From contig KZ538421.1 in NCBI GenBank assembly GCA_000934665.2, positions 1-64,000 of the forward strand: 64,000 nucleotides of DNA. Reading direction: 5' to 3'. Below the pieces are notes generated by a model. That model ran no database searches and was not told where the DNA came from. It saw only the letters and a list, made by a program, of their open reading frames with translations. This document shows, in pieces, positions 1,619-23,975 of the stretch; the stretch's first letter is position 1, and the number at the start of each line of letters is the position of its first letter. This DNA comes from Catajapyx aquilonaris. Its lineage: Eukaryota. The position numbers and the translations under genes were made by a program.

Positions 1619-4600
1619 TTCAACCCATTTCATGCGATGTTGAGGCTGCTGTAAAACTTACAAGAACAAACAGCAGGGACCAACAGAAACATGAGAGCAA
1701 CGCCAGGGTGAGGAACAAGGACACAAATGGAGCAAGTTACATAGAAGAGCCAGACAATGGTGGTTTGGTCAGCAACAGCCAGTTGATTGAAGCAAGTTCT
1801 GACATTGGAGCAGATGGAAAAGACTCGAAGCTGCACAAAAAATGGAAACACAAGAATAGTGACTTTATTGATACAGATGAACTATGTGAGAGGAAGAGAA
1901 GGAAGGTGGAGGTTACTCAGAATTCTGCTGTTGAAAAAGATACAGTTGAAGAATCGGAAAATTATGACAAGACACCTTCAATTCAAGAAGATATTGTGAA
2001 ATCTGGAGGTGATGGAGAAAAGAAAACTGAAGGGGTGAATGAGGCTTCTATAATCACAGCTGCAATGCAACAATTAACAAATCTGAACAATTTGCAGAAT
2101 ATTCGAACACGTGAAAAAGAAAAGCGAGTTGCCCAACAAGAAAGTAGTGTGGAAATCAAACGTACAGTTCAGGTTACTGATGACAGTAGGGAGTCCACAA
2201 ATGGATTTGTTACTTCCTCTAATGGGCATAAACTGCCTATTTGCAGTGTTATAGAGGTCATGAACAATCTATTAATGAAAGAGAAAGCAAAGCAGGCGAG
2301 TGCAGCCCTCACAGGAGTGAGAAAAGGTTCCACAATTGCCAGGGTCACAAATGAAGTAATCCAATTACTAGAAATAGAATGTACTCTGATTGCCAACCGG
2401 ATGCGAATTGAAAAGGCAGCTAATGGTGAAAACCCGGAAATGGAACCAGTCACAAATACATCGGAAGATGTATCACCAGTTACTGACATCCCACCATCTG
2501 GTCCTCTGAATGGAACTTTGCATGAGAGTGGATCATTGACATTAGATGATGAACCTACAGATGAAGCTGTTGCCAGAAAGCCTCATCGCAAGCGTAAACA
2601 TAGGGATAGCGAGAGGTCTAATACTAAGAAGCTCAGTCGAGGTGAACCAGAAGTTCAATTAGAAAAGATGAAGGTTTGGGATAATGGAGAGAAAAGTCAT
2701 GGGGTCAATCCTGAAAAGAATGTGGAAGCAGTGAAGGAAAAGCACCACTCACATACAAAGCATACAAGCAGAGAGAACCTTACAGGTGATACAATGAATG
2801 CCCTAATAGATGAGAAGTCAGAAATAGATGGTGGAGCTGTGTCAAGTCTGAGAAGTGGTAATGATTTCCAGAATGTGGGTATCAAAATGTATGAGAATAC
2901 CAGCAATTTGACTGATCAAGATGCTGAATCTAGGACAGAGAAGACTTGCAAGAGTAATTCTGATGTGAAAAGTGTACATGCAGAAACTAGGACAAATGAT
3001 GATGATTTCCATGTAATCAGAAGTGATGCAGATGTTGTTGCAGAGAAGACTTGTGCACAAAATTACACTAATACTCACACTTCGGCATCAGATGGAGGCA
3101 TTGTGAAAAGTTCTGCAGAAAAGCATCATCGTATGTCCAAGTCAAGGTCTCATGAAGAGATGGATTCAAAAAGTAGAGAAGCCCACAAGAGAGCTCACAG
3201 GAAAGCCCACAAGAAAGCCCACAAGAAAGAAAAGAAGATCGACAAGAACAATGATGGTGTAGATTTGAAGGTGCATGAACAAGAACAAGAGAGATGCAGC
3301 AGTCAGAACACTGTTTTGGTGGTTCAAGATGCAGGAAAGAAGGCGAAGCAAGGGACAGAAATAATGGTTCAAGAACAGGAAGAAAAGATATGCAGCAGTA
3401 AAAAGAAGACTGTATCTGGGATACAAGAATCAGAGAAGAAAATTGAGGGAAATGCAGGAGGGAAGGTACAAGGACATGAAGAGAAAAGTAGCAGCACACA
3501 TAAGAGGACACTTTCTGAGGTTAGAGATTCAGGGCAGACTGTGAAGGAGAAGACAGTGGTGAAGGTGCCTAATCATGAAAAGCGAGTCAGCATTCATAAG
3601 ACGACTGTTTCTGAGGTTCAAGATTCTGGGAAGACTGTGAAGGAAAATGAGAAGAAAAGCAGTCATCATAAGGAGATTGCTCCTGAGGTTCAAGATTCTG
3701 TTAAGAAGGCGAAGAAAACCAGTCATGATAAGATGATTGGTCCTGAGGTTCAAGGTTGTGTCAAGAAGGCGAAGAAAACCAGTCATGATAAGCTCATTGC
3801 TCGTGAGGTTCAAGATTCTGTTAAGAAGGCAAAGAAAACCAGTCATGATAAGATGGCTGCTTCTGAGGTTCAAGGTTGTGTCAAGAAGGCAAAGAAAACA
3901 AGTCATGATAAGCTGATTGCTCCTGAGGTTCAAGATTCTGTTAAGAAGGCAAAGAAAACCAGTCATGATAAGATGATTGCTCCTGAGGTTCAAGATTCTG
4001 TTACGAAGGTGAAGAAAAGCAGTCATCATAAGACGATTGTTTCTGAGGTTCAAGATTCTGGGAAGACAATAAAGGAAAATCGGGAGAAGAAAGAAAATGA
4101 AAGGGGAGACAGTCATCAAGAGAAGATTGTTTCTGAGGTTCCAGATTCTGAGTTGAAGAAGAAGGAAATTGAAGAGAAGATCATCAGTCATCAGGAGAAG
4201 AATGTTGTTGAGGTTCCAGACTCTGGATTGAAGATGATGGAAAATGAAGAGAAGAGAAGCAGTCATCGTAAGAAAAATGTTTCTGAGGTTCAAGATTGTG
4301 GGAAGAAAAAGGAGCATGGAGAGAAGAAAAGCAGCCACCGTGAGAATGTTTCTGAGGTTCCAGACTCTGGGTTGAAAAAGAAGGTAAATGAAGAGGAGAT
4401 TAACAGTCATCATGTGAAGAATGTTTCTGAGGTTCCTGACTCTGGGTTGAAGATGAATGAAAATGAGGAGAAGAGACAAGGTCATTGGAAGAAGAATGTT
4501 TCTGAGGTTCAAGATTGTGGGAAGAAAAAGCATGGAGAGAAGAGAAGCAGCCACCATGAGAATGTTTCTGAGGTTTCAGACTCTGGGTTGAATATGAGAG

Positions 4601-6325
4601 AAAATGAGATGAGACGTGGTCATCACAAGAAGAATGTTTCTGAGGTTGAAGATTCTGGGAAGAAAAAGGAACATAGAGAGAAGAGAAGCAGCCACCATAA
4701 GAATGTTTCTGAGGTTCCAGATTCTGGATTGAAGAAGAAGGAAAATGAAGAGAAGATTAGCAGTCATAAGAAGAATGTTTCTGAAGCTCAAGAGTCTGGA
4801 AAGAAAATGGAGCATGGAGAGAAGAGAAGCAGCCATCATAGGAATGTTTCTGAGGTTCCAGATTCTGGGTTGAAGAAGGACGAAAATGAGGAAAAGATAA
4901 GCAGTCATCATAGGAAGAATGTTTCTGAGGTTCAAGATTCGGGGAAGAAAAAGGAGCATAGAGAGAAGAGAAGCAGCCACCACAAGAATGTTTCTGAGGT
5001 TCCAGACTCTGGGTTGAAGGAAAATGAAGAGAAGATAAGCTGTCATCACGAGGAGAATGTTTCTGAGTTTCAAGATTCTGGGAAGAAAAAGGAGGAGGGA
5101 GAGAAGAGAAGTAGCCACCATAAGAGTGTTTCTGAGGTTGAAGATTCTGGGAAGAAAAAGGAACATAAAGAGAAGAGAAGCAGCCACCATAAGAATGTTT
5201 CTGAGGTTCCAGATGCTGGGTTGAAGAAGAAGGAAAATGAAGAGAAGATGAGCAGTCATAAGAAGAATGTTTCTGAAGTTCAAGAGTCTGGGAAGAAAAT
5301 GGAGCATGGAGAGAGGAGAAGCAGCCATCATAGGAATGTTTCTGAGGTTCCAGATTCTGGGTTGAAGAAGGACGAAAATGAGAAGATAAGCAGTCGTCAT
5401 AGGAAGAATGTTTCTGAGGTTCAAGATTCTGGGAAGAAAAAGGAGCATAGAGAGAAGAGAAGCAGCCACCATAAGAAGTCTGTTTCTGAGATTCAAGATT
5501 CTAAGAAGGTGAAGGAAGATCCACCAGCAAAGATTCAAGAACCTGAAGAAAAGAGAAGCAGCATTCAGAAGCCTGTTTCTGAGGTTGAAGATTTAGGGAA
5601 GAAGGCAAAGGCACATGCAGTAGTGAAGGTGCATGAACATAGGAAGGGAATTAGCTCTCAGAAGTCTCTTTCTGAGGTTCAGGAATTAGGGAAGAGGGTT
5701 AAGGTAGATGCAGTGGAAAAAGTCCCAGAACATGAAAAGAGAAGCAGGGACCAAGATTCAGGAAAGGAGGAGAAGGAACATGCAGCAGTGAAGGTGCATG
5801 AACATGAAAGGAGAAGCCACATTCAGAAGATTACAGTTTCTGAGGTTCAACATGCTGAGAAGAAAGTGAAGGAAGATATGTCAGCAAATGTTCATGTGCA
5901 TAATGAAAAGAGAGATGGCATTCAAAAGAAGTCTGCTTCTGAGATTCAAAATTCAGGGAAGAAAGCAAAGGAAGGTGTCACAATAAAGGTGTGTGAACAT
6001 GAAGAAACAAGTAGTTCTCAAAAAAAGAATGTCTCTGGGAGTCAAGATCCGGAGAAGAAGGTGAACGAGGATGACAAAAGGTCGGCCAAAGCAAGTCCAA
6101 CAATATCACAGAGTTATTTTTCAAAGAATAGTGACCAAGTGAGACATGTTCGTTATCCATTTCAAAAAACGGAGAAGAAGGGATTGAACTCAAGTGCAGA
6201 CCCAGGGGAAAAAAAAGTGCCTGTGAAAGGAAGCATGGAAGAGCACATGGCTGAAAGACGGACACATGTTGCCATGGTGCACAATTATTTTCTGCGAGAG
6301 CGCTTTATGAATGGAAACTCTGACG
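1619..6325 (+). CDS. Dnmt3: DNMT3-like giant exon (4707 nt): low-complexity K/E/S/H-rich region with tandem repeats
   Basis: Acceptor ttttttccag ends at 1618. The frame is open from 1621 and includes ORF 1708..6372. Donor G|GTATGA at 6325/6326 is in phase with the ADD exon. Confidence 0.85.
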
Positions 6326-9300
6326 GTATGATATGCCTGCATACATGTCTTGCATGTCAATGTTTCTTGTAGGGTGGGGAGCACCAAACTGACTAAACCA
6401 AATCTGTTTGGATTGTGCTTGTTATTAACCCCTTCGCTGCCAGATAGGCCTGAACCACATAGATTTCGGCCTATGCCTACTCCGAAGATATGGACCAGAT
6501 ATTTTACCAATAATAACAGCTATACTTACCAGATCTGGGAAAATACTATGAATGTGTCTGGAACAATTTTACTCCTCTAGAAGTCCCTAAATTAATTTCC
6601 AATAAAGGTCCATAAAAACTCGAAATTGGAGTACTGCTGGCCAACTCTTAGGTTGATTTGATTATGAAATGCGTGACAATATGCGGAATAACAAGCTTGA
6701 AAACCATGCCAGACGAATTTGCTGAAATCGCCGTACTTTGCGAGAAATAAATTAATACATATTTTCGGCTCTCTGGCACTTTGGAAAGCTACAATTTGGG
6801 GAGTTTTCTGAAGTGTCAAAAGCCGCAAATAAGTATCAATTTATTTACTACTAATATTATTATAATAAATTAATACTTATTTGCGGGTTTTTGGCACTTC
6901 GGAAAATTCACATTTGGGAGTTTTCCGAAGTGTCAAAAAGCCGCAAATGATTATTAATTTATTTCTCGCAAAGTACGATGATTTTAGTAAATTAATCTGG
7001 CATGGTTCTCAAGGTTATTCCGCATATTTTCACGCATTTCATAATTAAATCAGCCTAACAGTTGGTCAGCAGTACTCTAATTTCGAGTTTTTATAGCCGT
7101 GTTTTTGGAATTTAATTTAGAGACTCCTAGACGAGTAAAATTGTTCCAGACACATTCATAATGTTTTCCCAGATCTGGTAAGTATAGTGTTGTCCGATTG
7201 ATTGCACTGGTGTAGCCAGTGTACACTCGTGCAGAAAAAAGCGTCCGATTCACCGGGAGCAGCGTGTCCGATTCGCCAGTGTAACTGCACCAGTGCAAGC
7301 GGGGGGCTGCACTCGCTGCACCAGTGGAGAAGGTGGGGCAGGCGGTGTAAGGCGCGAAGACGGGCTGGCAAGATGGCGGCGGATGGAGGGTGAGTGGAGG
7401 TGTCCGATTCGAGGCCCCAGTGCTGGGTCACACTCGCTGCACTGTGACGTCACCTCCCTACACAGAGTGTAGCCGGTGCAGTGTCAATCGGACAACACTT
7501 ATATCTGTTATCATTGGTAAAATATCTTGTCCGTAACTTCGGAGTAGGTGTAAGCCGAAATCTTTGTGGTTCTGGCCTATCTGGAAGCGAAGGGGTTAAT
7601 TGTTGACAAAAGCTAGCATTATTGACTTTGGTGCTCCCTGCCCTAATAGCTTTTTTATGTCCCTATTTCTAAAGGTTATGGTGCTATTTAAATTTTATGT
7701 TGCAGTGGGGGCAACAGACCTGTTGCGATCCTACAGGGTGGACATAGAGGACGTATGCATTGCATGCAGGACACTTGCATCATTACCATATGATTACCAT
7801 CCATTCTTTACTGGAGGAATCTGTGACAAATGCAAGAAGAAGTTGGTTAAGACCCTGTATGTGTGTGGAGAGGATGGGACCAGTGTAAGTGTATTATTGT
7901 GTTTCCCTAAGTTTTAAGCTGCCCCAAATCGCGAGTTTTGGACTACAAAATCATATACAAATAAACCGGATTAACCAGATAAACGTGAATGATATCATCT
8001 TTTTGCGACCGCTGGAAAAAAACTTCAACAACAACAAAAAAAAATCCGACCTGGACCGGCAAATTTTGGCATACATAGTTGCCCCCAAACCTCCTCAAGA
8101 GATTCCACCCTAAAATTAGTGCAAAAGATGATTCAATAGGTTTAAAATAATGTTCGTAAATGACAATTAGCGGTTGGCGGGAATCTGCGCACTTCAACGC
8201 CGGCCTCTGGCTGGCTGGACGGCGCATGCTCCCCGCGCCTTTTGAATGGCTGAATGTTTACATTCATGAGGGAGTGTGTTTATGTATCACTTCTGCACGC
8301 CTGGCTGGCCTGTGACATAATTCATGCTATGTGCTTGTGTACTGCTTTGTTCAGAGGTGCCAAGGCTACATACCGATAATTTTTTGTCAAGCAGGCAGAG
8401 TGACACAGAAATGGAGTAGGCGCGAATCATACCCCTGCGCCACCTTGTTTGCGCGTTTAAGACTTCACATCTCCGTATCGTATGAGAGGAGGGTCACATA
8501 GATGGCCTCAGGCTCAAGCCTGGACACTATACGGTCTTATTGACTAGTGTTTTCAAGTCTTGTCCCCCAAGTCCCAAAGAAAGAGAATTTTTTGCAGATA
8601 CTTGCAAATGCGCGAAAAAACCACCCGCCTTATTAGGGTTAAAAATAATATTTGGTTTGCCCACAATGTGGGACATACGTAAATTACCTTACTATAACAT
8701 CAGGCCTGCCTAATAATAATTACGGGTATGGCAGTGTTTATTGTAATCCTCATTCCTGCCTGATCAATAGTGTCACTTTCTATATTATAATGGGGACCTT
8801 CAATATTGTCACATTGTCTGGGAACTTAACTCTGCTTACAACATGATAACACCTTAAATTTAAATGAAAAAGGTAAGGTCGCATGGAGGGACGTACATGT
8901 GCCAGGATGATATATTATACCTTGTGCTGGAAGCACCTTATCTCGGTAACTATGCGTCGGAGACCCATGTTGCATATACTTAAAGTGATCGCCTAGAACC
9001 CCTCTATCATTTCCAAAAGCCTCCGTAGGTTAAATTTTGAACCCTGTATAACTTGTTGTTAATGATATGCAAGCGATTTCGTGTGAATTGGCTCAACTTG
9101 AGCTGATATGGTATTGGCAATGGAACATTGAATTTGATGTTTTGAGTGTACAGCATTGATTTTCTTTTTACAGCGTCATTGTATCATCTGCAGCGAAGCT
9201 AAGCAAGTGATTACTTGCTCAAAACGCACTTGCAACAGGTTAGTATCTTTCATGCTGTATGCTGATTTTTTTTGTAAAACATTCTGATTTTACCCCTAGT

Positions 9301-12300
9301 ACATTTTGCAAGAAGTGTTTGGAAGCCTTGGCAGGCCCAGAGGAAGTGGAACGAATCTTGGAAAGTAACATTGGATTATGGAGGTGCTATATGTGCAGGG
9401 ATAACTATGAACCTTTGGGCTTTCTAGCCAGACGTCGCGGATGGCAGCGTTTCGTAAGGAAATTACCTAACAAAAGTACTGTTTTGTGGCATGTAACTTA
9501 AGTATATTTTTTCAGGTGGTCAAGCTGTACCAACCTTATTACTACATCAGTTATCACAATATTACTTATAAGATGAGAGAGCTACGAGTATTGTCTGTAT
9601 TTGACGGGATTGGAACAGGTAAAGTAAAAGCTGTGTAAATTCTGAGTGTGTGATGAGTGTCAGTTGATATCGAAACTTAAAAGGCAATAAGATTACTTTG
9701 ACAAAGTAAATGGTCATATCTGGGATGTAAAGTTGTGTACAAAACCACAGGGTATCGCCAGCAAAACTGATTACCTGATCGGGGGGGNNTTTTAAAAATA
9801 GCGCCCTAGGTGATAATCACTGGATCTGGCACCATTGGTTTCACTCTCGATTCATGCACAAGAGGGGGCTGAACCGTGAGAGACATAAAATGCTAGACCT
9901 GCATCGCGAGAGAGGGCATTTACCGCCTCATATGCTATGCATGATATGATGTCATCATATTGCAACAGCTGTGCTTTTTTTTAAAGGCGGCTTCCACCCC
10001 TCGGAATAATCCAAGATAATTACATGGTTTACCACTCTTTTTGATGAATTACGAAAACAAATGTCCGTTAAAAAAAATTAAAGGCCCAGTTTGAAAGGAG
10101 GTAATGTGAGCCACCAGGTACCAAAAATGGCGGCTAAGGTGGCAAGTAGGCACTGCCTAGAGCTCGGAGCAGTCTGCCCGGCCAATTAGGAGCGAGGACA
10201 CTTTCACGGCTGCAATGTACCTGCAAAATTCGCAGTTTCAGGCCTGCCTGTCCCAGAATATTTGCCTGGTGCCCCACATGGCAATAAATTGCGGAATAAA
10301 CACAGATTCACATAGGAAACAGCACACCACACTCCCTCACAATGGCAGAAGAACTTCTGTATCATAAATGATACAGGTCAACTTATCAGGCAGGACCTCC
10401 CAGGTTGCCCTGTGTTTGTATGGCAGAGGTGTCTTATTTCAGGTGACAGGGGAAACTCCTGGATTTTCATCTAGCTGTGTGCCAAATTTTTTAAACATTT
10501 AGGTGCCATACTTAATGAGATGGGGCCCCATTTGGTAGGGGGCTGAATGGCTGATATCTGGAGAGGGGTGGCTGGGTCGGGGCTAACCAGGAGCACATAA
10601 ACATGTCGAAGTGTACCAAAAGGAAAATGCAGATAGTGGGTTTTGGAATTGTTGGACTGAATTGTATCGATGCATTTCTTTGATGGGCTGCAGTTATTAA
10701 TTCTTTAATGAACAAAATTAAGGTAATGGTGTATATTTGTGACTGATAAATGTGTTCTCAAGAGAAAAATGTTGTGTGGTAGAAGTGGTTTTTTATGCTC
10801 TTCAATGTGTTGAACATTTTAAAGGGACACTCCACTCAAAATACAAGTTGGGCTCTAAAAATCGGGCAAAAAATCCTGACTCCGAGGGTATAAGCAGTTT
10901 TTCTGAGAGACGAACGGTAAGGCCAGGGCGAAAGCCGGAAGTGTGTCGTTCGAAAACCGCGCTCAAACGGGCCCGGTGCTGGTGGCGGCGCCACCCCAAG
11001 GGTGACGTTGGATAGTAGCGCCGCCCTTCCCAACGGCGACTTGGATAAGTTGCCTGCGGGCATGGGGATCCGTGGGGATCTGGTTGTGTCCGAAGCCAAC
11101 TTCCCCTAGTGCCCGTTGGGAAGGGCGGCGCTACTATCCAACGTCGCCTAACTTGGCCAGGTGGACAGGCGGCGCCACTCTCGAACAGACCTCGAATTTT
11201 TTCCGACTTTCGTCTCTTCCCCTGACATTACCGTTCGTCTCAGAGATAAACGGATGGTATCACCGGAATCAGGATTCTTTGCCTGATTTTTACAGATCAA
11301 CTTGTATTTTGAGTGGAGTGTCCCTTTAAGTGAAGTTTGCAAATTTGCAGGTTATTGTTGTCTTTCATTGATGTAATTAGTATCAATAGTAATTATGCTT
11401 TTTACTCTCAGGGCTCTACGTCTTGGATAAATTAGGAATGAAGGTTGAGAGGTATGTGGCTGCTGAGAATGACTTCGATGCCAAACAGGTTGCTACCAAG
11501 AAGTATGGAGGGAGAATCAAGCATCTGAAATCTGTGGAGTCTCTGAGCAGTGCTGACCTAGATAATCTGGGACAGATTGACGTAGTTATTGGGAATATGC
11601 CTTACACAGCTGCAGAAACACCTCATGTTACAGCTGGTAAGTGTTTGTCTAGTTTTTAGTGAAAATTCAGGATTGTAGGTCTGGGAAGTGGAAAAATTAT
11701 GTGTTCTTGAAGGGCTGCGTGTTCTTATTGGTATTACTCACTACCAAACTAACTCTTTCTACCCTCTTAAATTTTGACAATTTTTGGATTTTCTAATTCT
11801 GCTTGGCCTATAGTGTAGTGCAAACATCATCTCTGCTGATCTCCATGTTAGCAGGGTCAAAATACAAGCCAAAAGGCGATATTCTAAAGCCACAACACCT
11901 GCATCCTGTCATGGGTCGCTGCATCTGATACCAGTGATATATAAATGATTTATTAAACTTGATTCATAAATTGCTGCATAAAATTGATTTTGAAGCGTGT
12001 GAGGTGATATTATACTCGTTTTTGCCACCCTAGAGCTCGCTAGAGTCACGGTGACCAGGGACCTGCGACCCGCGACCAGCTGCTAGTGTTGTGGCATCGG
12101 AATATCACCTTTTGCCTTGTGCTTTGACATGAAAATTAGCAGCAGAGGTGATGTTTGCACAACACTATAGGCCAAGCAGAATTAGAAAATCCAAAAAATT
12201 TTAAAATTTATGAGGGTAAAAAGAGTTAGTTTGGTGGTCAGTATCAGTATTTTGCCTTATATGAAGTGTAATGTTTTCCTCGAGCGAGCCAATTGTGGAT

Positions 12301-15300
12301 TAACCAAATCCATGAGTCTTTGCACCAAAAGAAATAGGAGAAGTAAGTCTGGTGGGTATGGTACTCGGGATGATTGGCATAGATCCTGTTGAAGTTCCTT
12401 GTCATCCAGCTGTTCACAAACTGTTAGAAAATATGCAATTATGGTGTAGCAGCCACATTTCCAAGAAATGCAATTGGACTGATGATTCTTTGGCCAGACA
12501 TCTACTCCCCTGCCCCTCCACTTCCTGTGTGCAGTGGTTCGTCATTCAGAAGAATTCTTGACTTTACAAACCCCATAGAATTTCTGGTTTGAAGGAAAAT
12601 GTTCCACTTCTGTGAAGGCAACAGTGAGAAATTCTGAGGCACCTCCAAGAACAAGGATATACCTAACAGACAATAGGGATCACTTCAACACACCATGTGG
12701 ATTTAAGCATAAAACAGCGTATATAGTCATTAAAATTATCACATTTTGCCCAACTATTCACAATAAGACTGACAATGGATTGCCCTGTATTTGTAATCTT
12801 TTTTTATGTGCTTCACAGAAATCCTAAGCTTGTTCCATGAATTCCATCGCATATTACGATATGTGGAGATACGTAACAATGGTCATCATGTTTACTGGAT
12901 GTTTGAGTCCTTGACTATGGAAAAGAAGGAACAAGACATCATGAGCAGGTGAGCCAGTCAGGGGTAAGATATGGTAAGGGATGTGGTGGTGAGGTATGTG
13001 TTGTGGTGTGTTACTATATTAAAATTCAATGACTCTCGCAGCTTGAAAAATGGAGGTTGAAAAATGATACTCTGCTGTTCAAGCAACCCGGAATAGTCCT
13101 GCCTTTGGTTGCAGGAGTTGTATTCATGACTTTTACGTTCTTGTTTCTAGTTCCATTCCCCCATTCAATCCTAGTGTTGTATTTGCTGGCATTTGATGTT
13201 ATTCAACATGGTGCATTCTTCCTGCCATCCAATAATGGCTTTTCCAGGAGTCTGCAAGTGAATTTTAATTTCACTGCAATAGGTCAAGAAACTGTAGTTA
13301 CCTGAGAGGTGATGACGATGCATGCTTTGAAAGATGCTATTTATTTACTTTACCCCATGCATTACAACTTTCTAGTCACTGGAAAATTAGTGTAAGAGCA
13401 GCAACCTTAGACAAAATTGTTCGTATTAGTAAATATTGCAGTTAAATTACATGGCAAATATGTGGCGAGGGTATCAAAGCAAGCGCTCTTGTAGCTTAGT
13501 GGCAGAGCAAGCACTTCATTCAAGTGTTGACCTGGGTTCGATTCCTGGCGGGGGCATGCTATACGATTTACTCCGCCACATTTTGCTGTCTTGCACATTA
13601 AATTATGCAACTGAGCACTTCTCTTGGTGTGGAAGTGTATGGAAATCATGTAGATACGAACAGTTTTGCCATGTTGCTGTGTCGACCAAAATTTTGGTTT
13701 TATACACAATTTCTGAGCCACGGACAGGTTTCCTTGTAAGGGGGAATTTTTCTGCTATCTCATCACCATTTGCATGATAACTTGTGGCTATCATGTTTCT
13801 TATTGCTTCTATGGGTGGGTGGATGTTTTATGATGGGGTGAGATAGATGGTCATGAATTCATATCACGAAAGCAGCAACACATGATTATCATGTAGGATG
13901 ATTTTTTTATCTGGAATAATTAAATATCAAAATTCTCTACATCTCTTTTGGATAGGAGGCATTATTACACCATGCTGTGGAAATTAAGCTCTGGTGATTT
14001 CCCATGTGAATATGCTAGTTATACAGGGTGTTCCAATTGAAATGTCCACAATGGTTATAGATTTTTTTCAGGCATTGAGCTACTTATTTTTAAGCAGTTA
14101 CTTTTGAATAGTTGTGGTTATCAAAAGTATTATCTCCTAATATTGGGGTGAATTGATGAATATAATCTAGCTCCAAATTGCAATGAATTTCTGATTGGGA
14201 CTGGCCCATTGGTACACATGGCATCGAACATCAATGATGTAGATTTTTTTTTTTTATTATTATTATTTTTTATTTATTTTTTTTTTGCAGGCCAGATCTG
14301 CAGAAGATGTTAAAAGGATGGGTCAGTGTAATCCATAGTTAGTGGCTAATACATTTGATAAAAATGTTAAAACACAATTATCATACCTCTAATGATTACA
14401 ATTATTTCGCTACATCTAGGTCTGCATGGCAATTTGCATTACGTTTTTTCTTAGAATATACTACAGTGTGTCACACGTATGCAAGTCCTTTTAGTTTTGG
14501 GAAATTTCGCTTGGCGCTGTAATTTTTTTGTCACTGCTTGTGCCCTGATCCAAGTGCCCAATTATATAGAATCTGCTATATTTGACCCTACCTGGGAATT
14601 TTGTGCATCTGGATTGGACCTCAACAAGCTACAAAAAAATAACAGCTTCAGGTGAAATTTGTGATGACTAAAAGGATCTGGATACCTTATATGTGCAAGT
14701 TTTCTTTCAGGGACAGCTCAAGTTAATATGAACAATGCATGTTTTATACCTGCTGTAGGACAGGCTATAACTGCTAGGAGTGTCTAAGTGCAGCCAAAGT
14801 CTCATTGTTGTCCACGTTGTCACCAGTTGATGCCACCACATTGCTCACCTACGGTGTACACTTGTTTTGGACCAAGGAAGCCATTGTTATCCAGATGAGA
14901 TTGTAGAAGAAACACCTGGAATAGCTGGGGTTCATGATGCAATGAACAAGGATTACAGTCGAATCCCTCTATAACGAAAATCCGCTTATAACGAAAGAAA
15001 ATTTGTGACCGTCAGAGGCCCCATATAAACCCATGTTAAAAATATCCGCTTTTTAACGAAAGGATTAAATTTTTCCCTCCATCAGTCCCACCTCTCCGCT
15101 GAAAAAGGCAGAAGTGGGCAAATTGGGCCATAAATCACCATCTGTGTGTTCGGGATTCAACCTTTTTTCACACATTCAGTCCAAAAGTTGATAATTTGGG
15201 GTCCTAATGGAAGGGAAAGGATTCTCTGGGGGGGAGGGGGGGGGCTGTCACGCAGTGACTCAGAGCTGCCCACTAGATTTATTGCTAGCACGTGCCCCCC

Positions 15301-17978
15301 CCCCCCCCNCCCCCCCCCCCCCCCAAGGGAAGGAGGCAGGTGGTTAAAACCTGGGAATATTCAAGGGAGATAATTATGACCTTTCCTTATCATCTTTCCC
15401 CACCATTTCCTCTTTCCCCCCTTGGGTCTGCTACTTGCTGGAGATTATGGGGGGCATATTATGCCGGCGCCCAGGGTTAGCTGATGGACCGAATTGCTGT
15501 AGCTTATTGTTGTCGACTTTGCGCAGTGCTTTGTGATGTAATCTAATTTAGCGCGGAAGAATTTTTTAACTATTTTTCCCGCTACCAGGGCTTAATATAA
15601 CGCCTAAATATAGAAAAAAGTTAGGTTTAAACGCGGTTTTTTATATAACGAATTTCGCATATAACGAAAGAAAATTTGGTTCCCTTCAATTTCGTTATAG
15701 AGGGATTCGACTGTATTCGAAAAATATTCTGGGTTTTTGGTATTGAGCCTAGCATACCATGTGGCGTTGCATTCCAGGGAGTGCGTTAATAAACCAGGTG
15801 TAAATGAGAAGTTCCTGAATGAATGAGTGAACCTGGCTGGAGCTTCTAAATTTATGCCAGATCATGGCAACATTTTAATTTCTGTTATTAACGTGTATTT
15901 TCTGTGAAAGGAGACGAAAATCCATTCCATTTCTGCATTGGGCAGGTTCTGTTATATTCATCAAAGAGTACATTGCTTGTCCTATGTGTATGGCTATTCC
16001 CAGAAAAAATTCCGCAATGGATAGGTTCCCGCTATGCTCAGGGTCTGTTATGGACAGGTTTCACTATACTTGATGACCTTGCAAGTAGTGTCATGTTGTT
16101 ATACAGTGCTGGACATATTAGCCGTCGCTGAATGTTTTTTTCCGGCGGCGGCGGCGTTACCTGGCAACCCTGTCCGGCGGGCCAATTCAAACATCAGCCC
16201 ATGGAGAGCGCTTCCATTGTTGCCACTGTTTACAAATCGAGTGAGTGAAGGCCCATACACACAGGCCAATCGACGGTTTTGGTTTTTGGTTTTTGGTCGC
16301 GTTGACGCCGCGGACCAATCATGACTCATGTAAACAAGTGCAACCCATTGTTTACAACTTGTTTACATGAGTCATGATTGGTCCGCGGCGTCAACGCGAC
16401 CAAAAACCAGAACCGTCGACGGCCTGTGTGTATGGGCCTTCACGCGGACGACCCAGCGATGGGTCTCTTCTGCCTGCGCACTCACTCACTCGATTTGTAA
16501 ACAGTGGCAACAATGGAAGCGCTCTCCATGGGCTGATGTTTGAACTGGCCCGCCGGACAGGGTTGCCAGGTAACGCCGCCGCCGTCGCTGCCGAAAAAAA
16601 ACATTAAGCGACGGCTAATTTGTCTAGCACTGTAAAGGGAGGTAAATTTTGTGGTTTCCTCCTTTCTTGAATATTATTAGGTGTTTTATTTGAACTGCTA
16701 AATAATTATTGCCTCCAAATTCCTTAAGTAAAGGGGCCAAAACTTACCCCTGGTACAAGTGAAGTACAAGTGTGAACACATCCTCATTAATGTTAATAAG
16801 ACAGGAGTCAGGTACGTTCCAACTTCATCTCTGTTGGCAAGGCTGAAGTATTTATTTGTCAATGACATGAAACCTATCATGTGTAAAGGAGGTAAAACAT
16901 GCATCAGTATACAGGCATGCTGGTAGAGATGTGCATTTTGTAAAATCTGGTCACCACTATTTACCAGCATGCTGCTATTTGTGGGGTAATATGGATATGG
17001 TAAGCAATAATTAGGTTGCTTACCTGCAAGATATTGCATGCATTTTTATTATTTGATTGAAGATACATTGAAGCTCGTAGCGAGAGCAAAAGGGAAGGGA
17101 AGAAGGGAGAGCACAGCAGTGCTTGTTGTAGTAGTGCACCACTGGACATCATGCTCTTGCTTTGCAACAATCTGGGATTAAATTCAGGAGGAAGGCTAGG
17201 AGGGTGATGCTTTCCTCTGTACACAACAGCATACAAATCGGCTGTCCTAAGGAGAAGTGCTGTACTATGGGCGCCAAAAGAATTGACCGGAGTTGATGGG
17301 TATATAGCGCCATATATAGCCTACCCATCAACACCGGGCAATTCTTTTGCCGCCCATAGTACCTACAATAGTTGTACTGTAAGAACGAAGGTCGTGTGGG
17401 CACTTCTTTTGTCCTTGCTGGTTTTGTAGATACGGCATTTCTCCTGGGATGGAAGAAGTGCTAGTGTACGTGAGGAAGTGAAGTAATGTCTTTTTGCATT
17501 TAGGTTCCTGGAAAGTGAGCCTGTCAATCTGGATGCACAGTTGATTCCCAATACCTACTTTGGACGCTCATTTTGGGGCAACATCCCTGGCATCCAGGCA
17601 ACTCTGGACACAGAAAAGTTGGCACAACGACTGTCACTTCAGGAGTTTCTAGTTGGAGGTCCCACTTCCGGGGCGAATGCTGAAGACAACCTCATGACGC
17701 TCTCTACACCAGGACCATCAACTTCGACTCATGGCAATCCCGAAGGGTTCTCCTCGCATGCTACTTCAACATTCAAGTCCAGCGCCCTTTATCCTATGCA
17801 GTGGTTCAGTGAGATGGTGGATGCCTATGGCATGAATAGCCAGTTTGAACACATGGATGGGCTGTCTGTGGGAGTTGTCAGGAAACTTCTTCGAAGAGCC
17901 TCCAGCGCATTGATCATGGCGAATGTCATGCGTACTCTTACACAGTTCTTTCCATGTGTGAAGGAGGAGAAAGAGTAG
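1619..17978 (+). CDS. Dnmt3: DNMT3-like protein: repeat-rich N-terminus, ADD domain and degenerate C5-methyltransferase domain; 8 visible coding exons; 5' end unresolved
   Basis: join(1619..6325,7706..7884,9174..9238,9300..9453,9516..9618,11412..11636,12819..12948,17504..17978). All introns are GT-AG with matching phases, giving one open frame. The translation matches DNMT3 ADD (IEDVCIAC..HPFFTGGICDKC..CIIC..WRCYMC..RRRGW) and MTase motifs (LRVLSVFDGIGTG, IDVVIG, YWMFE, SRFLESEPV, FWGNIPG). Confidence 0.92.
3601..5500 (+). repeat. Coding minisatellite: 60-bp units (SHDKMIAPEVQDSVKKAKKT) followed by alternating 60-66-bp units with core NVSEV(Q/P)DSG
   Basis: Consecutive 60-nt lines 3661..4020 are near-identical. 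The core tttctgaggttc(a/c)agattctg recurs throughout. Confidence 0.92.
6429..7595. mobile_element. piggyBac-type foldback MITE with a nested insertion at 7186..7499
   Basis: TTAA-CCCC...GGGG-TTAA with long inverted arms. The nested element has TIR AGTGTTGTCCGATTGA and a TAT duplication. Confidence 0.82.
7706..7884 (+). CDS. Dnmt3: DNMT3-like exon: ADD GATA-like finger
   Basis: tgcag| GATDLLRSYRVDIEDVCIACRTLASLPYDYHPFFTGGICDKCKKKLVKTLYVCGEDGTS |gtaagt. Confidence 0.92.
7926..8638. mobile_element. 5'-truncated copy of the 18547..19477 piggyBac-type MITE
   Basis: Colinear similarity (aaatcgcga.ttttggactacaaaatc ... cttattagggttaa). Confidence 0.75.
9174..9238 (+). CDS. Dnmt3: DNMT3-like exon: ADD PHD finger, part 1
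   Basis: tttacag| RHCIICSEAKQVITCSKRTCN |gttagt. Confidence 0.9.
9300..9453 (+). CDS. Dnmt3: DNMT3-like exon: ADD PHD finger, part 2
   Basis: cctag| TFCKKCLEALAGPEEVERILESNIGLWRCYMCRDNYEPLGFLARRRGWQRF |gtaagg. Confidence 0.9.
9516..9618 (+). CDS. Dnmt3: DNMT3-like exon: linker and MTase motif I
   Basis: tttcag| VVKLYQPYYYISYHNITYKMRELRVLSVFDGIGT |gtaaag. Confidence 0.9.
10823..11325. mobile_element. Kolobok-type MITE family A
   Basis: TTAA TSD; TIR AGGGACACTCCACTCAAAATACAAGTTG at both ends; internal inverted repeat. Confidence 0.85.
11412..11636 (+). CDS. Dnmt3: DNMT3-like exon: MTase motifs II-IV, catalytic PC replaced by PY
   Basis: ctcag| GLYVLDKLGMKVERYVAAENDFDAKQVATKKYGGRIKHLKSVESLSSADLDNLGQIDVVIGNMPYTAAETPHVTA |gtaagt. 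Confidence 0.92.
11735..12243. mobile_element. Foldback MITE with long TIRs
   Basis: ctaccaaactaactcttt..ggattttctaattctgcttggcctatagtg is mirrored at 12150..12243. Confidence 0.7.
12819..12948 (+). CDS. Dnmt3: DNMT3-like exon: MTase motifs V-VI (FENV -> FESL)
   Basis: cacag| EILSLFHEFHRILRYVEIRNNGHHVYWMFESLTMEKKEQDIMS |gtgagc. Confidence 0.9.
13485..13556 (+). pseudogene. tRNA-like sequence
   Basis: A box tagcttagtgg, B box ggttcgattcc, G-U-rich acceptor stem gctcttg/cgggggc, non-canonical anticodon loop. Confidence 0.5.
14956..15713. mobile_element. Tc1/mariner (pogo/Tigger-like) MITE
   Basis: TA-CAGTCGAATCCCTCTATAACGAA...TTCGTTATAGAGGGATTCGACTG-TA. Confidence 0.85.
16104..16632. mobile_element. 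Foldback MITE (TA TSD) containing an inner palindromic element at about 16250..16438
   Basis: TA-CAGTGCTGGACATATTAGCCGTCGCT...AGCGACGGCTAATTTGTCTAGCACTG-TA with near-perfect arms. Confidence 0.85.
17504..17978 (+). CDS. Dnmt3: DNMT3-like last coding exon: degenerate motifs VIII-X
   Basis: tttag| RFLESEPVNLDAQLIPNTYFGRSFWGNIPG...LSLQEFL...WFSEMVDAYGM...RKLLRRASSALIMANVMRTLTQFFPCVKEEKE*. Confidence 0.9.
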
Positions 17979-18546
17979 TAAGTGCACAAATTGTTGCTGT
18001 TTTTATTTTTATTCACATCAGTTTGCAATTGAGTATTTGATACTGTTTGCCATACATCCATGACGAATTAACTGTTGAAAGGAATAGGAACAGCAAAGGA
18101 ATTTTTAAAAGCATAAGTTATATCTGTTAGGCCCAAACCCTGAAAATGGCCATAGAGCAAAAAAAGCGACCATTTCATGGAATGCTCTTCTCAAAATGGC
18201 CAGATAGCAAAGTGGTCGTTTTTAAAACAGCCAAAGCAGTTTGCGGAGAGAGAGAGAGACGAAAATTCCACTCATTGTCTGCAGGCCTCTCGATAAAGCC
18301 TAATACTACAGTATTATTTATATAAACGCATCGTTCCAGTAATTTATGATTTTTATTACTTCTTATGGTACATCATATGGGAGTCCCTGTAGTATTTTAT
18401 TTCCACTTTTCTTTGGTGTGAACAACATGAAGGGTTGTGACTGAGGTTAATTCAAGTCAAAAGTAAATGCATAGGTGCCCCAAGATCAAAAGTAGTGCAT
18501 CAACATTTTTCTAGAACAAAATCTGATTGCTGCTTGCCTGTTTTAA

Positions 18547-19477
18547 CCCTAATAAGATGGGTGTATCATATGCTGACACGGTGGCTTTAAAAAATTCTGC
18601 TGGCGAAACTAGAGCGTTTTCCCATTATGTAATGGGGTTTCTGTGTGGCTTATTTTATTTTCTCTCACGTAAAAAATCGCGAATTTTGGACTACAAAATC
18701 TTGCATAAATAAACCAGATTAACCGAATTAACTTGAATGACATCATCTTTTTGCGGCTGATGAAAATAAAACTCCCCCCTCCCAAAAAATTATCATGTTG
18801 GCCAGCAAATTTTTGCATACAGAGTTGCCCCCAAACCTCCTTAAGAGATTCCACCCTAAAATTAGTGCAAATGATAATTCAATAGTTTTAACATAAATAA
18901 TGTTCGTAAATGCCAATTAGCGGCTGGCGGGCCATTGTGCAACTCCCGCCCGGCTTCCGTGAGGATGGAGGGGCGCATGCCCTGCGGGGCGTTTGAACAG
19001 CTGTGGAGCAAGGGAGGTTTACACTCGAGTGGGGGTTGTACGTTTGTCTCTGTTGCTGGCTTGCCTGTCCGGTGACGTATTATTTATGCATACGTGTCTG
19101 TTCAGTAGCGCCAGCGCGACACATCCATATCATCGGTGATCGTGCAAAACCTCATATATTCCATTGGTTTTTGCAAGAGATACGAGGTTTTGCATGATCA
19201 CCGACGATATACTTCTTGTCAGCGCAGGAGTGACAATAAATTGGAGAGAAAAATATGTAGGCGCGAAACGCACCCTTGCAGCATCTGTTGAGACTTTTAA
19301 GAATTTAAATCCGCATGGTATGGCAAGAGGGTCCCATAAATGGCCTCGGGATCAAGCTTAGACACGACACGATGTAACTCACTAGATTAGTCACGTGTGG
19401 TCCCTCAAATGAGAACGCAAGTGATTTTTTTGCAGATTCTTGCAAAAACGCAAAAAAAACCACCTGTCTTATTAGGG
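18547..19477. mobile_element. piggyBac-type MITE
   Basis: TTAA-CCCTAATAAG...CTTATTAGGG-TTAA. Confidence 0.8.
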
Positions 19478-19887
19478 TTAAAGCAAACCATTTTGCATTC
19501 AGTCAGTGCTACACTCATTGAAAGGTGATGGTGAAATGGTTGGTGTTAAATTAGTCGGAGTTTTTCAAGAATACTCAGAACTTAGTCAATGTGGCTTGAG
19601 ATAATGATGAACAGGACGTGATGGCCATAATTGTGTCATTATTATTGGAAGTGAATTAATTACAAGTGATAGTCCCGGAACATGCAACAAGCTTTAGAAA
19701 ATCTTTTTCAAAATGCATGGAAATATGAGCAGTAATTGGCAAGAAAGCAGGTAGATGTATTACTGATAGGTACTAAATCATTGAATATGAATGGATACAA
19801 AATAATGTAGGAAAAAGGACATGCAACAATAATACTAATTACTATATAGTAAATATTACTGTCTTAATTTTTCTTCATTATTTCTAG

Positions 19888-19921
19888 ATACCATCAGTTG
19901 GAGGAGCAACTGGACAAATAT
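19888..19921 (+). other. Candidate 34-nt 3' exon of the DNMT3-like gene
   Basis: Strong acceptor tttttcttcattatttctag and donor GTGAGT. The upstream donor GTAAGT at 17978 overlaps the stop, so splicing gives TA|A. Confidence 0.45.
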
Positions 19922-21014
19922 GTGAGTACCATTTGAACCTCAATGGCTGTTGACACTAGAATGCATCAAAAGTCCACCTTTGTTGCAAACAATCAATCCG
20001 TAACACTCCAGTGGGTGATGTGCTCTGGGGCTTGATACACTAAATTCAACTCGGATCAGGTGGTAACATTTTGGCTGACACCAAGGCTACGTGACTTTCA
20101 CACCACATTGCTAGTCGTTGTGGTCCAGTTTAAGGGTGGCTTTTTGGCTGGTAGGGTTTTTGGTAACTGTCCAAGGTTAATTACACTGTACGACAAGGTT
20201 TTTTTTTCTCGGGTTATGATATGCGTTTTCAATAAGTGTTTTCGCTGCTGATTCCAAATGTGTAATTAGAATTGTGCTGTCAGGCACAGTTATTGAGATA
20301 TACTGCATTTACTAATAGACTATCTATTAGTAAATGCAGTATATCTCAAAAACTGTGCCTGACAGCACAATTATAAGTACACATTTGGAATCATGGTGAA
20401 AGGTACTACAGGAATCACTATTCACAACTTCAGAAAGAGCAAAAAGGTTTTTTTTTTTAAGTAGAAGAGTGAAATTAACGGTATATCTGCAAAACATATC
20501 TATTATTTTCTCGCGAACCATGCTTGACCCAGGCCTCAAACATACTGAACCTTATGTCGGTCACAACTAGTGTCACCAAAAAATATGACTTATGTACCCC
20601 AAATACATCACTAATTGTTTAGGTCACAATTCTTGGGCATGTGACTGAGCAAGTGACCAATGAAATGCTATAAAAAGTTATTTTTTCATTTTAGAGAAAC
20701 ACTAATTCCACAGGAGCATTCTCCTGGTGTTTCCCTTTCTTTTGATATATATGTTCATTGGGTTTTGACCACTTCCACTAACCGAAAAAAATTCTCCAAA
20801 AGGGCCTCATTTTCACCCATTTCCGTATATATTTGCGATTTTTTTCCTCCTCATGGTATTGGCCAATATGACCGAAACTTTATAAGCAGCATTAAGGAGT
20901 AGTTGAGTACATCTGCGATTATTTTCACCAAGATCCGAGACTATCTAGCAACATTTAGGCCCACTTGATTCGGTAAGACCCCTAGTAAACAGTTCCAAAC
21001 TTGAAAACGATACA

Positions 21015-21593
21015 CAGTAAAGCTTCTATCAGTCGAACTTCCCAGTCGAAGTTCTCTATAAGTCGAAGAAAATGATGAGCTTGGTCGGTCGCAATGTAAA
21101 ATAATGGGAAATAAACTTCCCCTAACTCGAATTTCTATAACTCGAAGTGCAGGCAGGGCCTTACGATGGGATATCAATGCATTGTAGTCTTCCTAAGTCG
21201 AAGTTCATGTTGCGAGCACAGAAAATTTTATAATTTCCCAGCCGAAGAGTCGAGAGTAGGCCACATGTACGGAACAGCTCAATTTCTTGATCTCCATCTA
21301 CCAGACATACCGAAGGAAGTGTTTGACTCGATTGTGACAATTGAATCCTTGAATCTAAGAGTAGGCAAATGTCCATAACGGAGTTTTTTTTTTTACAACA
21401 AAACAATGAGGAACATTGTAAGTGTGATAGTGAGTTACTTTTAAGTTTTGAACACCTTTCGTCGCTGGATATAAAGGTAGGCTTCCTTATAGAGTTCTGT
21501 GCCTTAAAAAATCCAAATGCTCTAACTCGATTCTTCTGTAACTCGAAGTTTTTTTCCGGTCCCATGGAGATTCGACTTATAGAAGTTTTAGTG
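21015..21593. mobile_element. Degenerate pogo/Tigger-like MITE
   Basis: cagtaaagcttctatcagtcgaa / ttcgacttatagaagttttagtg, with repeated ataactcga motifs. Confidence 0.6.
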
Positions 21594-21740
21594 TATCCCA
21601 AAAATTGTGCCTGACAGAAACCTTCTGAGCAGATTATCGGATTCAGTGCAGAAATTACAATAGGAATCACTATTCAGATCTTCAGAATATAGGAAAAAGT
21701 GACAATTTGTAGAACTGTGTTATTAGTAAGGAAGGCATTT

Positions 21741-22644
21741 TTAGGTTCTAAAAACCCTCAAATAGGTAGGCATTTAGGCCCTGAAAACAGTCAAAATAGG
21801 CTCTTAATAGGCAGTAAAAATCAAGTTGGTCCTAATTTATTTTCATATTTATTTTTATTATTTATGTTATTTATTTTATTTATTATTATTTAATTTATTT
21901 TTTATTTTATTTTTTTATTTAACTTTTTTATTTTTACATCCTACACTTGCCCATGGAATTTTGCAGCACAGTAACAAACTCGCAGTTATTCAGCGATGCC
22001 TGTCTGACAGTACATTTCTACCTGCTGAAAATGACCTTTTGACGCCACACAAAGCAAATGGATCATACTTGAAAAGTGAAATGAGGGGTGTGGTGGAAAA
22101 ACATGATAACTGACATTTTTGTCATTTTTTACTAAACACCTAGCAACTATGCATAAGACATGACAAACAGTTTGGTATACTCCAAGTTCATGTATCATGC
22201 ATGAGACGGCCACACGGACTAGTTCAAAACCAGCATTCCCTATGATTTGTTAAGAAAATGCAAACTTCAATTCGCTCTCCTGAAAAATTACACCTTTGTC
22301 AGTTATCATGTTTTTCCACCACACCCCTCAAATGTCTCCTACAGTCAGTTCATCTGACATGCATACAGCTTCTTCGCTCGTCACGGGTTGAAGTGAGAGG
22401 GATTCCTTGAACGGAAAACCTGCGGAACTCTCGAAAATCTTACAAAACGGTGTCAAAAGGTCGAAACAGGTGCAAAATAGGGACTAATAGGCCATTTAGG
22501 TCCCAACGTCTGATATAGGCAATTTTAGGTTCTATAAAACTACTATTTTTGAGGTTTTTGTCTTATGAAACGGATAGATATTTTGTGTCTGGTGTTCTGC
22601 CTACAAAATAGACAGTTGGTAAAAACCTAGAAATCCGTTCTCTT
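21741..22644. mobile_element. Second copy of the hAT-type MITE (left TIR missing)
   Basis: Colinear with 47072..47726 at both ends. Confidence 0.75.
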
Positions 22645-23975
22645 ATTATTATTAGAATTCTGCATTTACTACTCTTTGGGCTTTGTTCTGAGAAAATGGA
22701 TTGAAGCTGTAAGTAGTGACGTGGATATTTTTTCTTTGCAGTCGGAATGAAGATTTTGGGAAGTTTCACGGAGAAGAATCAGAGGAATCTTAAGTGTATG
22801 TAACTATCCGTTCCCTTGTGATTATATGTGGATGATTTATGTATACTATATGAGAACTGAGAAATATTGAATCATAATGCAATGTTTTGTGGTACATTGT
22901 ACTGACACAAGCAGAAGGAAGGTGCATGGTAAGACAGTAACATCGCAACACCTCTGGTGAAATGTTCGTACCCACAAAAACTGTAACATAGGCTGACTGA
23001 GGAATGTGGTCAGCATTGGCATGAACCTTTCAATTGACAGGATGCCAATATACTTTTTAATAACATGCACATTTCATATGTTTGTGACAGTACAAAACGA
23101 ATCACATTTACCCTGGAAATTTAAAGTTAACCTGTGCCAAATATTAATTGGGCATTGTTATTATTTACAAGAAAGATTTAAAATGTGCCGAGTAATATAT
23201 TTTCCATAAAGCATTGCATTGGTGTTACAAACTGTTTTTATTTTATATGCAGATGTGAATTAAGGGGGTGCTGAAGTGAAAAACTTTGCAAGCAACTATG
23301 TTGCAAAGCTGCAAGTATACCATTATATGGGATGGCAGTCTTGGGGAAATGACCTGAAAAAGTTACTTCAAAAAGTATATGTTATATGTTACGTATGTTA
23401 ATATATGATATAAGATATAACAAAAAAGTTTTACTCGGATATGTCTCAATGGGATGGAATGAAACTGTTGTATTTATGTAACAGTGGCACACTGTGTATT
23501 AATGTGCATGTGGAGTCTTGAGAGATGGAGGTAGACCGAGGTAACCGGTTGATCCATGTGTGTTGATGGATAATACCTGTATTGCTCCAATTGATAGGTC
23601 CAGCGCATTTCAGGAGTCTCATGTTGTTGCTATTTTTCCAGCTCATGTACAAAATTAATGAACAATCTTGAGTGGCCACTACTCGAGCCAAGAGTGACTG
23701 ATAGGAGCGACTGCTAGGCACGTCCGGCTGGCGTGAAGTTTGGGGGGCCATGCCATGTTACCATCTATTGTAATTACAGCCCAGTGATTTAAAAAAAGTT
23801 CTTAAGTGAATACGTACTAAATCTATTTTGCTAGTTAACATGTTCTTTATAAAAAGACCTACAAATTTGAATTGTGTTTCTTAACATTCTGTGTCATTAA
23901 TATTTATATTCCTTAATATGATAGTGTAGAAACTTGATGTGCATGCATTTAACACTCTTGGAATGGCCTACTATA

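Follow-up and report, generated by a model that had tools for sequence, protein, structure and literature searches.

The first 64,000 nucleotides of contig KZ538421.1 from Catajapyx aquilonaris (NCBI GenBank assembly GCA_000934665.2), referred to here as the window, carry a DNMT3-like gene on the + strand. Judged by its sequence, the encoded protein is a member of the DNMT3 family by descent and not an active enzyme. With a probability of roughly 0.6, we consider it a transcribed and selectively maintained DNMT3-family pseudoenzyme, in which a disordered K/E/S-rich repeat region is followed by an intact ADD domain and by a methyltransferase (MTase)-like domain incapable of methylation, and which has a non-catalytic role. 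The reading as a non-catalytic chromatin protein is preferred because selection has kept the ADD domain, motif I, and the core helices. The window is DNA of eukaryotic type, with a GC content of ~41%, kilobase introns, and interspersed repeats.

Homology to DNMT3 and the rewritten catalytic motifs

Seven exons on the + strand (A-G), which are bounded by AG acceptors and GT donors throughout, yield a continuous reading frame of 442 codons when spliced. The first three encode the ADD domain. Exon A (7706-7884, splice sites AG/GTAAGT) harbors the GATA-like zinc finger. Exon B (9174-9238, AG/GTTAGT) continues in frame with the part of the PHD finger that is characterized by the pattern CIIC...C...C and conserved Cys columns, and exon C (9300-9453, AG/GTAAGG) supplies the end part of this finger. 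Exon A matches the Pfam model PF17980 ADD_DNMT3 with 47.5 bits (E 1.8e-12, cut-off 26), and the open reading frame (ORF) of exon C, searched as a single exon, reaches 25.1 bits against PF21255 (E 1.9e-5, cut-off 27). In the PDB, exon A is matched best by DNMT3L (6.5e-7), followed by DNMT3B and DNMT3A, with values up to 1e-4. A Cys is present in the window protein at 12 of the 12 ADD Cys columns that are common to P0004 and P0005, two intact DNMT3s. The identity over the ADD domain is 35%, compared to 42% between two intact DNMT3s. The acidic stretch DDDG of intact DNMT3s reads GEDG in the window protein.

As is typical of the DNMT3 family, the ADD domain is located just upstream of the MTase domain, and the latter has a C5-MTase fold that is homologous to DNMT3A/B. 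The domain is divided over four exons. Exon D (9516-9618) encodes a linker and an intact motif I (LRVLSVFDGIGTG), and exon E (11412-11636) encodes motifs II-IV, with VIGNMPYTAAE in place of (V/L)IGGSPCNDLS. Exon F (12819-12948) adds the helix LFHEFHRILRYV and motif VI, which reads WMFESL instead of W.FENV. Exon G (17504-17977/8) harbors motif VIII (YFGRSFWGN), the target recognition domain (TRD), motif IX (EMVDAYGM), and motif X (LLRRASSAL). The claim of the initial annotation that this part of the gene has an intact frame and canonical splice sites holds, as exons D, E, F, and G are all flanked by AG/GT and share one open frame.

The homology of exons E and G to DNMT3 lies far beyond chance. 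In a phmmer search of PDB chains, exon E matches DNMT3C/3B/3A with E-values of 1.7e-8 to 2e-5, and VIGNMPY is placed opposite VIGGSPC. Exon G matches DNMT3A (E 3e-9), which pairs YFGRSFWGN with HRARYFWGN, EMVDAYG with EMERVFG, and RRASS with GRSWS. When the spliced model is compared by blastp to a panel of 122 DNMT3s, the 40 panel proteins listed give E-values of 1e-57 to 2e-73 at 28-35% identity. Neither PF00145 nor any other Pfam methyltransferase model matches any single exon.

For a residue-level comparison, the spliced model was aligned in MAFFT with four intact DNMT3s, of which two are from ticks, one is vertebrate DNMT3A-like (P0004), and one is an unnamed protein of 2694 residues. Residues 371-830 of P0004 alone were used in the comparisons. 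At its N-terminus, the full P0004 entry resembles a transposase, and its C-terminal tail is unrelated; the entry is probably a gene-model fusion in the source.

The Cys of motif IV is the nucleophile needed for cytosine-C5 methylation. In the window protein this position is occupied by a Tyr, encoded by TAC at 11603-11605 (+ strand), and both phmmer and MAFFT place it opposite the PC of intact enzymes, as initially annotated. The exchange requires one base, a transition (TGC/TAC). Taken alone, the Tyr could be a sequence error, but the surrounding motif IV is altered as well. The further changes listed in the initial annotation are all recovered by alignment. In MAFFT, the FENV of motif VI is replaced by FESL, and the TRD reads MTLSTPGPS where the intact proteins have RT(I/V)TT(R/N)xNS. 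Against DNMT3A, phmmer recovers the substitutions of HRARYFW by YFGRSFW in motif VIII, of EMERVFG by EMVDAYG in motif IX, and of GRSWS by RRASS in motif X. The catalytic loop behind motif IV is shorter by five residues than in the vertebrate row and by seven than in the tick rows. The TRD additionally contains a 13-residue insertion. Where DNMT3 catalysis calls for PC(N/Q), ENV, and RxR, the window protein thus has PY, ESL, and FGR.

The window protein keeps 43 of the 98 MTase columns that are invariant in the four intact DNMT3s. When each intact DNMT3 is left out in turn, it retains 98 of the 111-126 columns that are invariant in the other three, whereas the window protein retains 47-56 of the same columns. 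Its MTase identity is 31-37%, compared to 48-64% among the intact DNMT3s, and the PC of motif IV is present in 120 of the 122 panel proteins. Because the nucleophile is a Tyr and ENV, RxR, the TRD, and motifs IX and X are altered, the MTase-like domain should be catalytically dead for C5 methylation.

Motif I (VFDGIGTG) is intact; its commonest form in the panel is LFDGIGTG, which is found in 63 of the 122 rows. The Glu of motif II is also kept (AAEND, compared to ASEVD). The retention of FDGIGTG and of this Glu, while the DNA-facing motifs have changed, would fit a protein that is still an enzyme, namely a transferase that depends on S-adenosyl methionine (SAM), has a changed substrate or chemistry, and does not need a Cys nucleophile. 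We regard this as highly improbable. Motif X, which is part of the SAM pocket, reads RRASS instead of G(R/K)(S/A)WS, no single exon is recognized by a Pfam methyltransferase model, and DNMT3 proteins are not known to have undergone a conversion of this kind.

The initial annotation likened the protein to DNMT3L, which combines an ADD domain with a dead MTase domain and lacks a PWWP domain. An ADD domain and a dead MTase-like domain are indeed present, given the PF17980 match of 47.5 bits and the loss of the Cys and of most catalytic and DNA-contact motifs. A PWWP exon is likewise absent within the window. Tblastn with the PWWP-bearing DNMT3s P0002, P0004, and P0005 detects none in the 64 kb, and Pfam detects none in the large exon described below, although an upstream exon beyond the window is possible. 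P0003 is a partial DNMT3 without a PWWP domain. Neither an alternative PCN exon nor a second DNMT3 copy is found in the window.

Gene extent, transcription, and probable maintenance

The gene had been annotated at 9516..17978. Exons D-G are located there, but the gene is not confined to this span, since the ADD exons A-C occupy 7706-9453 and the gene begins at or before 1619. A large coding exon of 4.7 kb (1619-6325, + strand) encodes ~1569 codons. Its acceptor AG is found at 1617-1618, and its donor GTATGA follows position 6325 in phase 1, which is compatible with exon A. The coding frame contains 0 stops, whereas the two remaining + frames contain 78 and 174. The encoded sequence is rich in K (15%), E (12.5%), and S (12%). 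Tandem repeats detected by Tandem Repeats Finder cover 3651-5502 (+ strand) in frame, with units of 60 bp (6.8 copies) and 69 bp (19.6 copies), and follow a pattern of about RSSHHKNVSEV(Q/P)DSG(L/K)KK.E.EEK. Nineteen consecutive peptide units span residues 887-1319; they are 22-31 residues long (17 of the 19 have 22-25), and the frame is never lost. No Pfam domain is found in the large exon at E<=1 except for one 13.5-bit chance match, and blastp against the DNMT3 panel yields nothing at E<=0.01 and no likeness to the N-termini of other DNMT3s.

Transcript evidence is provided by contigs of a second sample of the same organism (X5; 2022, run kind unrecorded), which are of the RNA type by their splicing, while X1 and X2 are DNA contigs. 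X5 record 17 runs from 5800-6324 directly into 7705-7884. It is therefore spliced, since the X1 and X2 contigs continue into the same intron. Records 21 and 22 lie on 17502-17783 and 17793-17977, respectively, with 0 other letters. In record 21, which has a depth of 3.6, the part that lies on exon G is preceded by 133 letters. The X5 depth of 1.02 in the bin 12655-13111 corresponds to 130 nt at this depth of 3.6. An F-G junction in X5 can be inferred, because the X5 cover of exon F is exactly what record 21 would contribute at its depth. Of the spliced mRNA whose confirmation the initial annotation called for, the join between the large exon and exon A is seen directly, the F-G join indirectly, and exons B-E are absent from the listed X5 pieces. 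The parts that X5 leaves uncovered carry no evidential weight, and neither does the absence of a variant at 11603-11605 among the 40 listed of 165 differences.

At the 3′ end, a TAG at 17976-17978 (+ strand) overlaps a GTAAGT donor at 17978-17983. Record 22 (823 letters) places its letters 1-185 on 17793-17977 and continues with 638 letters from elsewhere, and the X5 depth of the bin 17682-18138 is fully explained by records 21 and 22. The TAG is probably spliced out, because the X5 contig leaves the genome at 17977, GTAAGT stands there, and no X5 depth is left on 17978-18138. The true C-terminus would then probably be encoded in an exon farther downstream. This exon was not located by a Pfam search of 86 + strand ORFs of at least 40 aa in 17979-34000, which gave nothing at E<=0.01.

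At the 5′ end, the frame of the large exon is open for 148 codons ahead of its first Met, and an upstream exon with a phase-1 donor is required. Fifteen ATG/donor pairs in the needed phase, one of which combines ATG 1182 and a donor following 1194, are candidates for the first coding exon, and none of them has RNA support. A CpG-rich stretch at 1100-1500 (+ strand; CpG observed/expected ratio 1.22) is located upstream of the large exon and looks like a promoter of the gene. Assembly Ns form a 183-N gap at 58984-59166 and occur as scattered single letters at 1214, 9788-9789, 15309, 29511, and 32620; none falls into the exons of the DNMT3-like gene.

Several properties bear on whether this gene is maintained or is decaying. 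Neutral drift was simulated with substitutions only, in 300 runs per identity level. At 80% identity, 2 runs kept the 442-codon frame free of stops, and at 60% and 45% no run did. These numbers serve as a rough guide only, as the simulation ignores insertions and deletions and begins from the present sequence. The gene is probably not a drifting pseudogene, because its frame is open, the ADD domain is conserved more than the MTase domain, the splice sites are canonical, spliced RNA-type contigs exist, and drift would close the frame.

In a quick IQ-TREE analysis of 50 rows (the window protein and part of the 122-row panel, with 73 rows left out, mostly fish, Hymenoptera, and fragments), the end branch of the window row measures 2.79 changes per column, compared to a median of 0.29. 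A reading frame would not have stayed open over that much neutral change. The window row is unplaced in this tree and belongs to none of the starred sets. The nearest rows by path are chelicerates, which on an end branch of 2.79 is no evidence of a taxon. HMMER searches of exon G against 1.84 billion representatives return five matches at E<=1e-3, of which four are intact DNMT3s with 27-29% identity. A match of exon G to P0001 was rejected as a spurious repeat protein. Orthologs were sought among proteins of 287-2000 aa with exon G, where 0 of 487 candidates scored, and among proteins of 862-2744 aa with the large exon, where 0 of 7996 scored. A search of the ESM Atlas by features gave no usable match.

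The long end branch (2.79 against 0.29), the lack of an ortholog in the exon G and large exon searches, and the low depth of the X5 contigs would all fit a gene that is transcribed but decaying and has no function of its own, be it a pseudogene of recent origin or the degenerating last DNMT3 in a lineage on its way to giving up de novo methylation. DNMT3 has been lost in many lineages, which counts for this explanation as well. It nevertheless appears improbable. Decay is opposed by the open frame (442 codons across exons A-G, plus 1569 in the large exon), by the canonical form of every splice site, and by an ADD domain that retains all 12 shared Cys columns and shows a degree of conservation similar to that among intact DNMT3s. 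It is further opposed by the absence of any stop-free run among the 300 simulated at 60% identity and by repeat units whose lengths vary in frame only.

Beyond the DNMT3-like gene, the window contains a multi-exon tektin gene downstream on the minus strand (27636-61000, with pieces at, e.g., 27636-27899, 36628-37062, and 58710-58931). Its pieces match Pfam PF03148 with E-values of 3e-8, 8.4e-6, and 1.1e-7 at profile positions 65-121, 196-270, and 319-382. A short repeat family has copies at 742-854, 10819-11329, 53666-54100, and 57416-57932, which occur in both orientations, partly as inverted pairs, and are 92-96% identical over ~113 bases. The word depth in the DNA runs is 20,000-30,000 at these copies, compared to ~20 in single-copy parts. 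The family is a high-copy element resembling miniature inverted-repeat transposable elements and is present in the introns and the upstream region of the DNMT3-like gene. The F-G intron additionally harbors an internally inverted repeat (16100-16640), whose arms are 86-94% identical and whose DNA-run depth is very high. A tRNA-like sequence with an unusual anticodon (ATT, Asn) is located in the same intron at 13485-13556 (ARAGORN), and contigs of X5 are interrupted at 13522 and 13557. This sequence probably represents a short interspersed element derived from a tRNA rather than a tRNA gene.

Proposed role of the protein

As a non-catalytic chromatin protein, the pseudoenzyme could divide its tasks among its three parts. 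The ADD domain would read the tail of histone H3, the dead methyltransferase fold would be used as a structural or oligomerization module, and the repeat region may take on the role of a scaffold. Acting together, these parts may allow the protein to recruit further chromatin factors or to regulate them, and an active DNA methyltransferase may be among these.

A more specific proposal, made in the initial annotation, is that of a DNMT3L-type cofactor. In this case, the dead domain would pair with an active DNMT3 paralog from the same genome through an interface of the DNMT3A-DNMT3L type. It would boost de novo methylation or direct it to its targets, and the ADD domain would check for unmethylated H3K4. 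An ADD domain followed by a dead MTase domain, with no PWWP domain in the window, is the composition expected for such a cofactor, and DNMT3L is the best PDB match of exon A (6.5e-7). The helix FHRILRY is kept and resembles FHRLLQY of DNMT3L, a match that is not significant (E 0.3). The Phe of SRFLES is also kept and is aligned with RFLES of DNMT3A. However, the second Phe of LFFEF, which is invariant in the four intact DNMT3s and which is needed for the DNMT3A-DNMT3L interface, is replaced by a His (LFHEF). An active DNMT3 partner is absent from the window, and the protein has an intact motif I and a TRD/IX/X region, unlike DNMT3L.

The methylation signal in the DNA can be read in two ways. 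The CpG observed/expected ratio is 0.16-0.38 in the gene body, where GpC is near 1, and amounts to 0.68 for the whole window and 1.22 at 1100-1500. The low gene-body ratio suggests germline methylation in this organism, and a working methylation system would suit a DNMT3L-type cofactor. CpG depletion is, however, no proof of an active DNMT3, because there are methylating species that have to rely on DNMT1 (PMC12576374), and some insects are known to be of this type. Proteins proposed to act as such cofactors have been described from Daphnia (DNMT3.1) and aphids (dnmt3x) in the sources discussed below. Taken together, we hold a DNMT3L-like partnership with an active DNMT3 to be rather doubtful for the window protein.

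The reading as a selectively maintained pseudoenzyme with a non-catalytic role has several points against it. One of the acidic residues with H3 contact in DNMT3A is probably a Gly in the window protein, and binding of the H3 tail is predicted from the conserved zinc ligands by themselves. A residual or altered SAM-dependent activity is possible, given the fully kept motif I. The RNA support consists of a few contigs of low depth from one run of unrecorded kind, with exons B-E absent from the listed pieces. The drift simulation is coarse, and no ortholog that would attest to long-term retention was found in the exon G and large exon searches.

Comparison with known inactive DNMT3 proteins

The closest analogy in mammals is DNMT3L, in which an ADD domain is followed by an MTase-like domain without the catalytic Cys, and which has no PWWP domain; in the window protein none was found. 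One difference concerns motif I, which is replaced in DNMT3L (LSLFEDIKKEL in the aligned chain) and intact in the window protein (FDGIGTG). The window protein also contains a TRD/IX/X region, although a rewritten one, and ~1570 residues of repeats ahead of the ADD domain. DNMT3L has neither a TRD nor the C-terminal motifs, and its length is ~390 residues. Common descent with DNMT3L is not suggested, and the tree cannot place the protein.

Among invertebrates, two diverged DNMT3 copies have been described. DNMT3.1 of Daphnia magna is described in PMC8016896 as missing five of the six MTase motifs "as with the DNMT3L in mammals", with motif VI being the one retained, and as a possible interaction partner of DNMT3.2. 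The same paper describes DNMT3.2 as a motif-complete copy without a PWWP domain and reports phenotypes of the DNMT3.1 knock-out in starvation only. DNMT3.1 and the window protein are both invertebrate DNMT3s whose MTase domains have diverged. The two are set apart by motif VI, which is kept in DNMT3.1, and by the fully kept motif I and the lack of a detected PWWP domain in the window protein. The aphid dnmt3x is an old, retained paralog that misses residues for methylation, carries PWWP and ADD domains, is expressed in germ cells together with dnmt3a, and has been proposed to play a DNMT3L-like role, as stated in bioRxiv 10.1101/2024.02.14.579807. Both genes encode DNMT3 proteins lacking residues for methylation; the PWWP and ADD domains of dnmt3x contrast with the ADD domain, undetected PWWP domain, and giant repeat exon found here. 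The 123 proteins obtained in the homology searches include neither DNMT3.1 nor dnmt3x, and the motif patterns reported for these two are unlike the one seen here.

A third arthropod case emerges from the panel itself. The tick proteins P0067 (a hypothetical protein of Rhipicephalus microplus) and P0055 are near-identical and are the only 2 of the 122 panel proteins without PC. They have PS for PC (LIGDSPSSDL), GSI for ENV (WIFGSI), and RAM for RAR (ARAMLFWGN), and look like another inactive arthropod DNMT3 copy. In contrast to the window protein, they fall among intact DNMT3s in the tick clade, where their branches are short. Their motifs IX and X are retained (ELEGLFGF, LLRKAWSVP), and their substitutions are different ones. 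An open-access literature search that included ticks found no paper on inactive tick DNMT3s of this type.

Inactive partners of active enzymes are also known outside these groups. DNMT3B3, an inactive splice form of DNMT3B, and DRM3 of Arabidopsis are described as such in PMC7846833 and PMC2965745. DNMT3B3 differs in being an isoform and not a separate gene. DRM3 comes from a plant, contains UBA domains, and has its motifs rearranged. The DNMT passages of the crustacean genome paper PMC5111886 make no mention of dead copies, and the open-access literature searched yielded no further invertebrate case of a dead DNMT3.

The initial annotation proposed a candidate invertebrate DNMT3L analog and left its novelty to be checked. 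The member itself is new, but the idea of a diverged, DNMT3L-like invertebrate DNMT3 is already in print, as seen in PMC8016896 and bioRxiv 10.1101/2024.02.14.579807. The window gene is a genuine addition to a known kind, and a very divergent one. What makes it notable is the giant repeat exon together with a motif I that has been retained. It may tentatively be proposed that it represents an origin, independent of those in mammals, Daphnia, and aphids, of a regulator with an ADD domain and a dead MTase domain, which is fused to a charged scaffold of ~1570 residues, keeps motif I, and could function as a SAM-sensing or H3K4-reading adaptor by which the methylation machinery of the animal would be directed.

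In mammals, inactive DNMT copies that regulate active ones (DNMT3L, DNMT3B3) are central to germline methylation, whereas the inactive partners of Daphnia and aphids are proposals without biochemical proof. If the genome of C. aquilonaris has no active DNMT3, a DNMT3 would have been wholly repurposed for a chromatin role that is independent of methylation. The combination of a kept ADD domain and motif I, lost DNA-facing motifs, and giant repeats provides a contrast that would be useful for finding the surfaces that matter in non-catalytic roles. A further lineage with a retained and expressed dead DNMT3, next to mammals, Daphnia, and aphids, would favor a repeated origin of pseudoenzyme partners.

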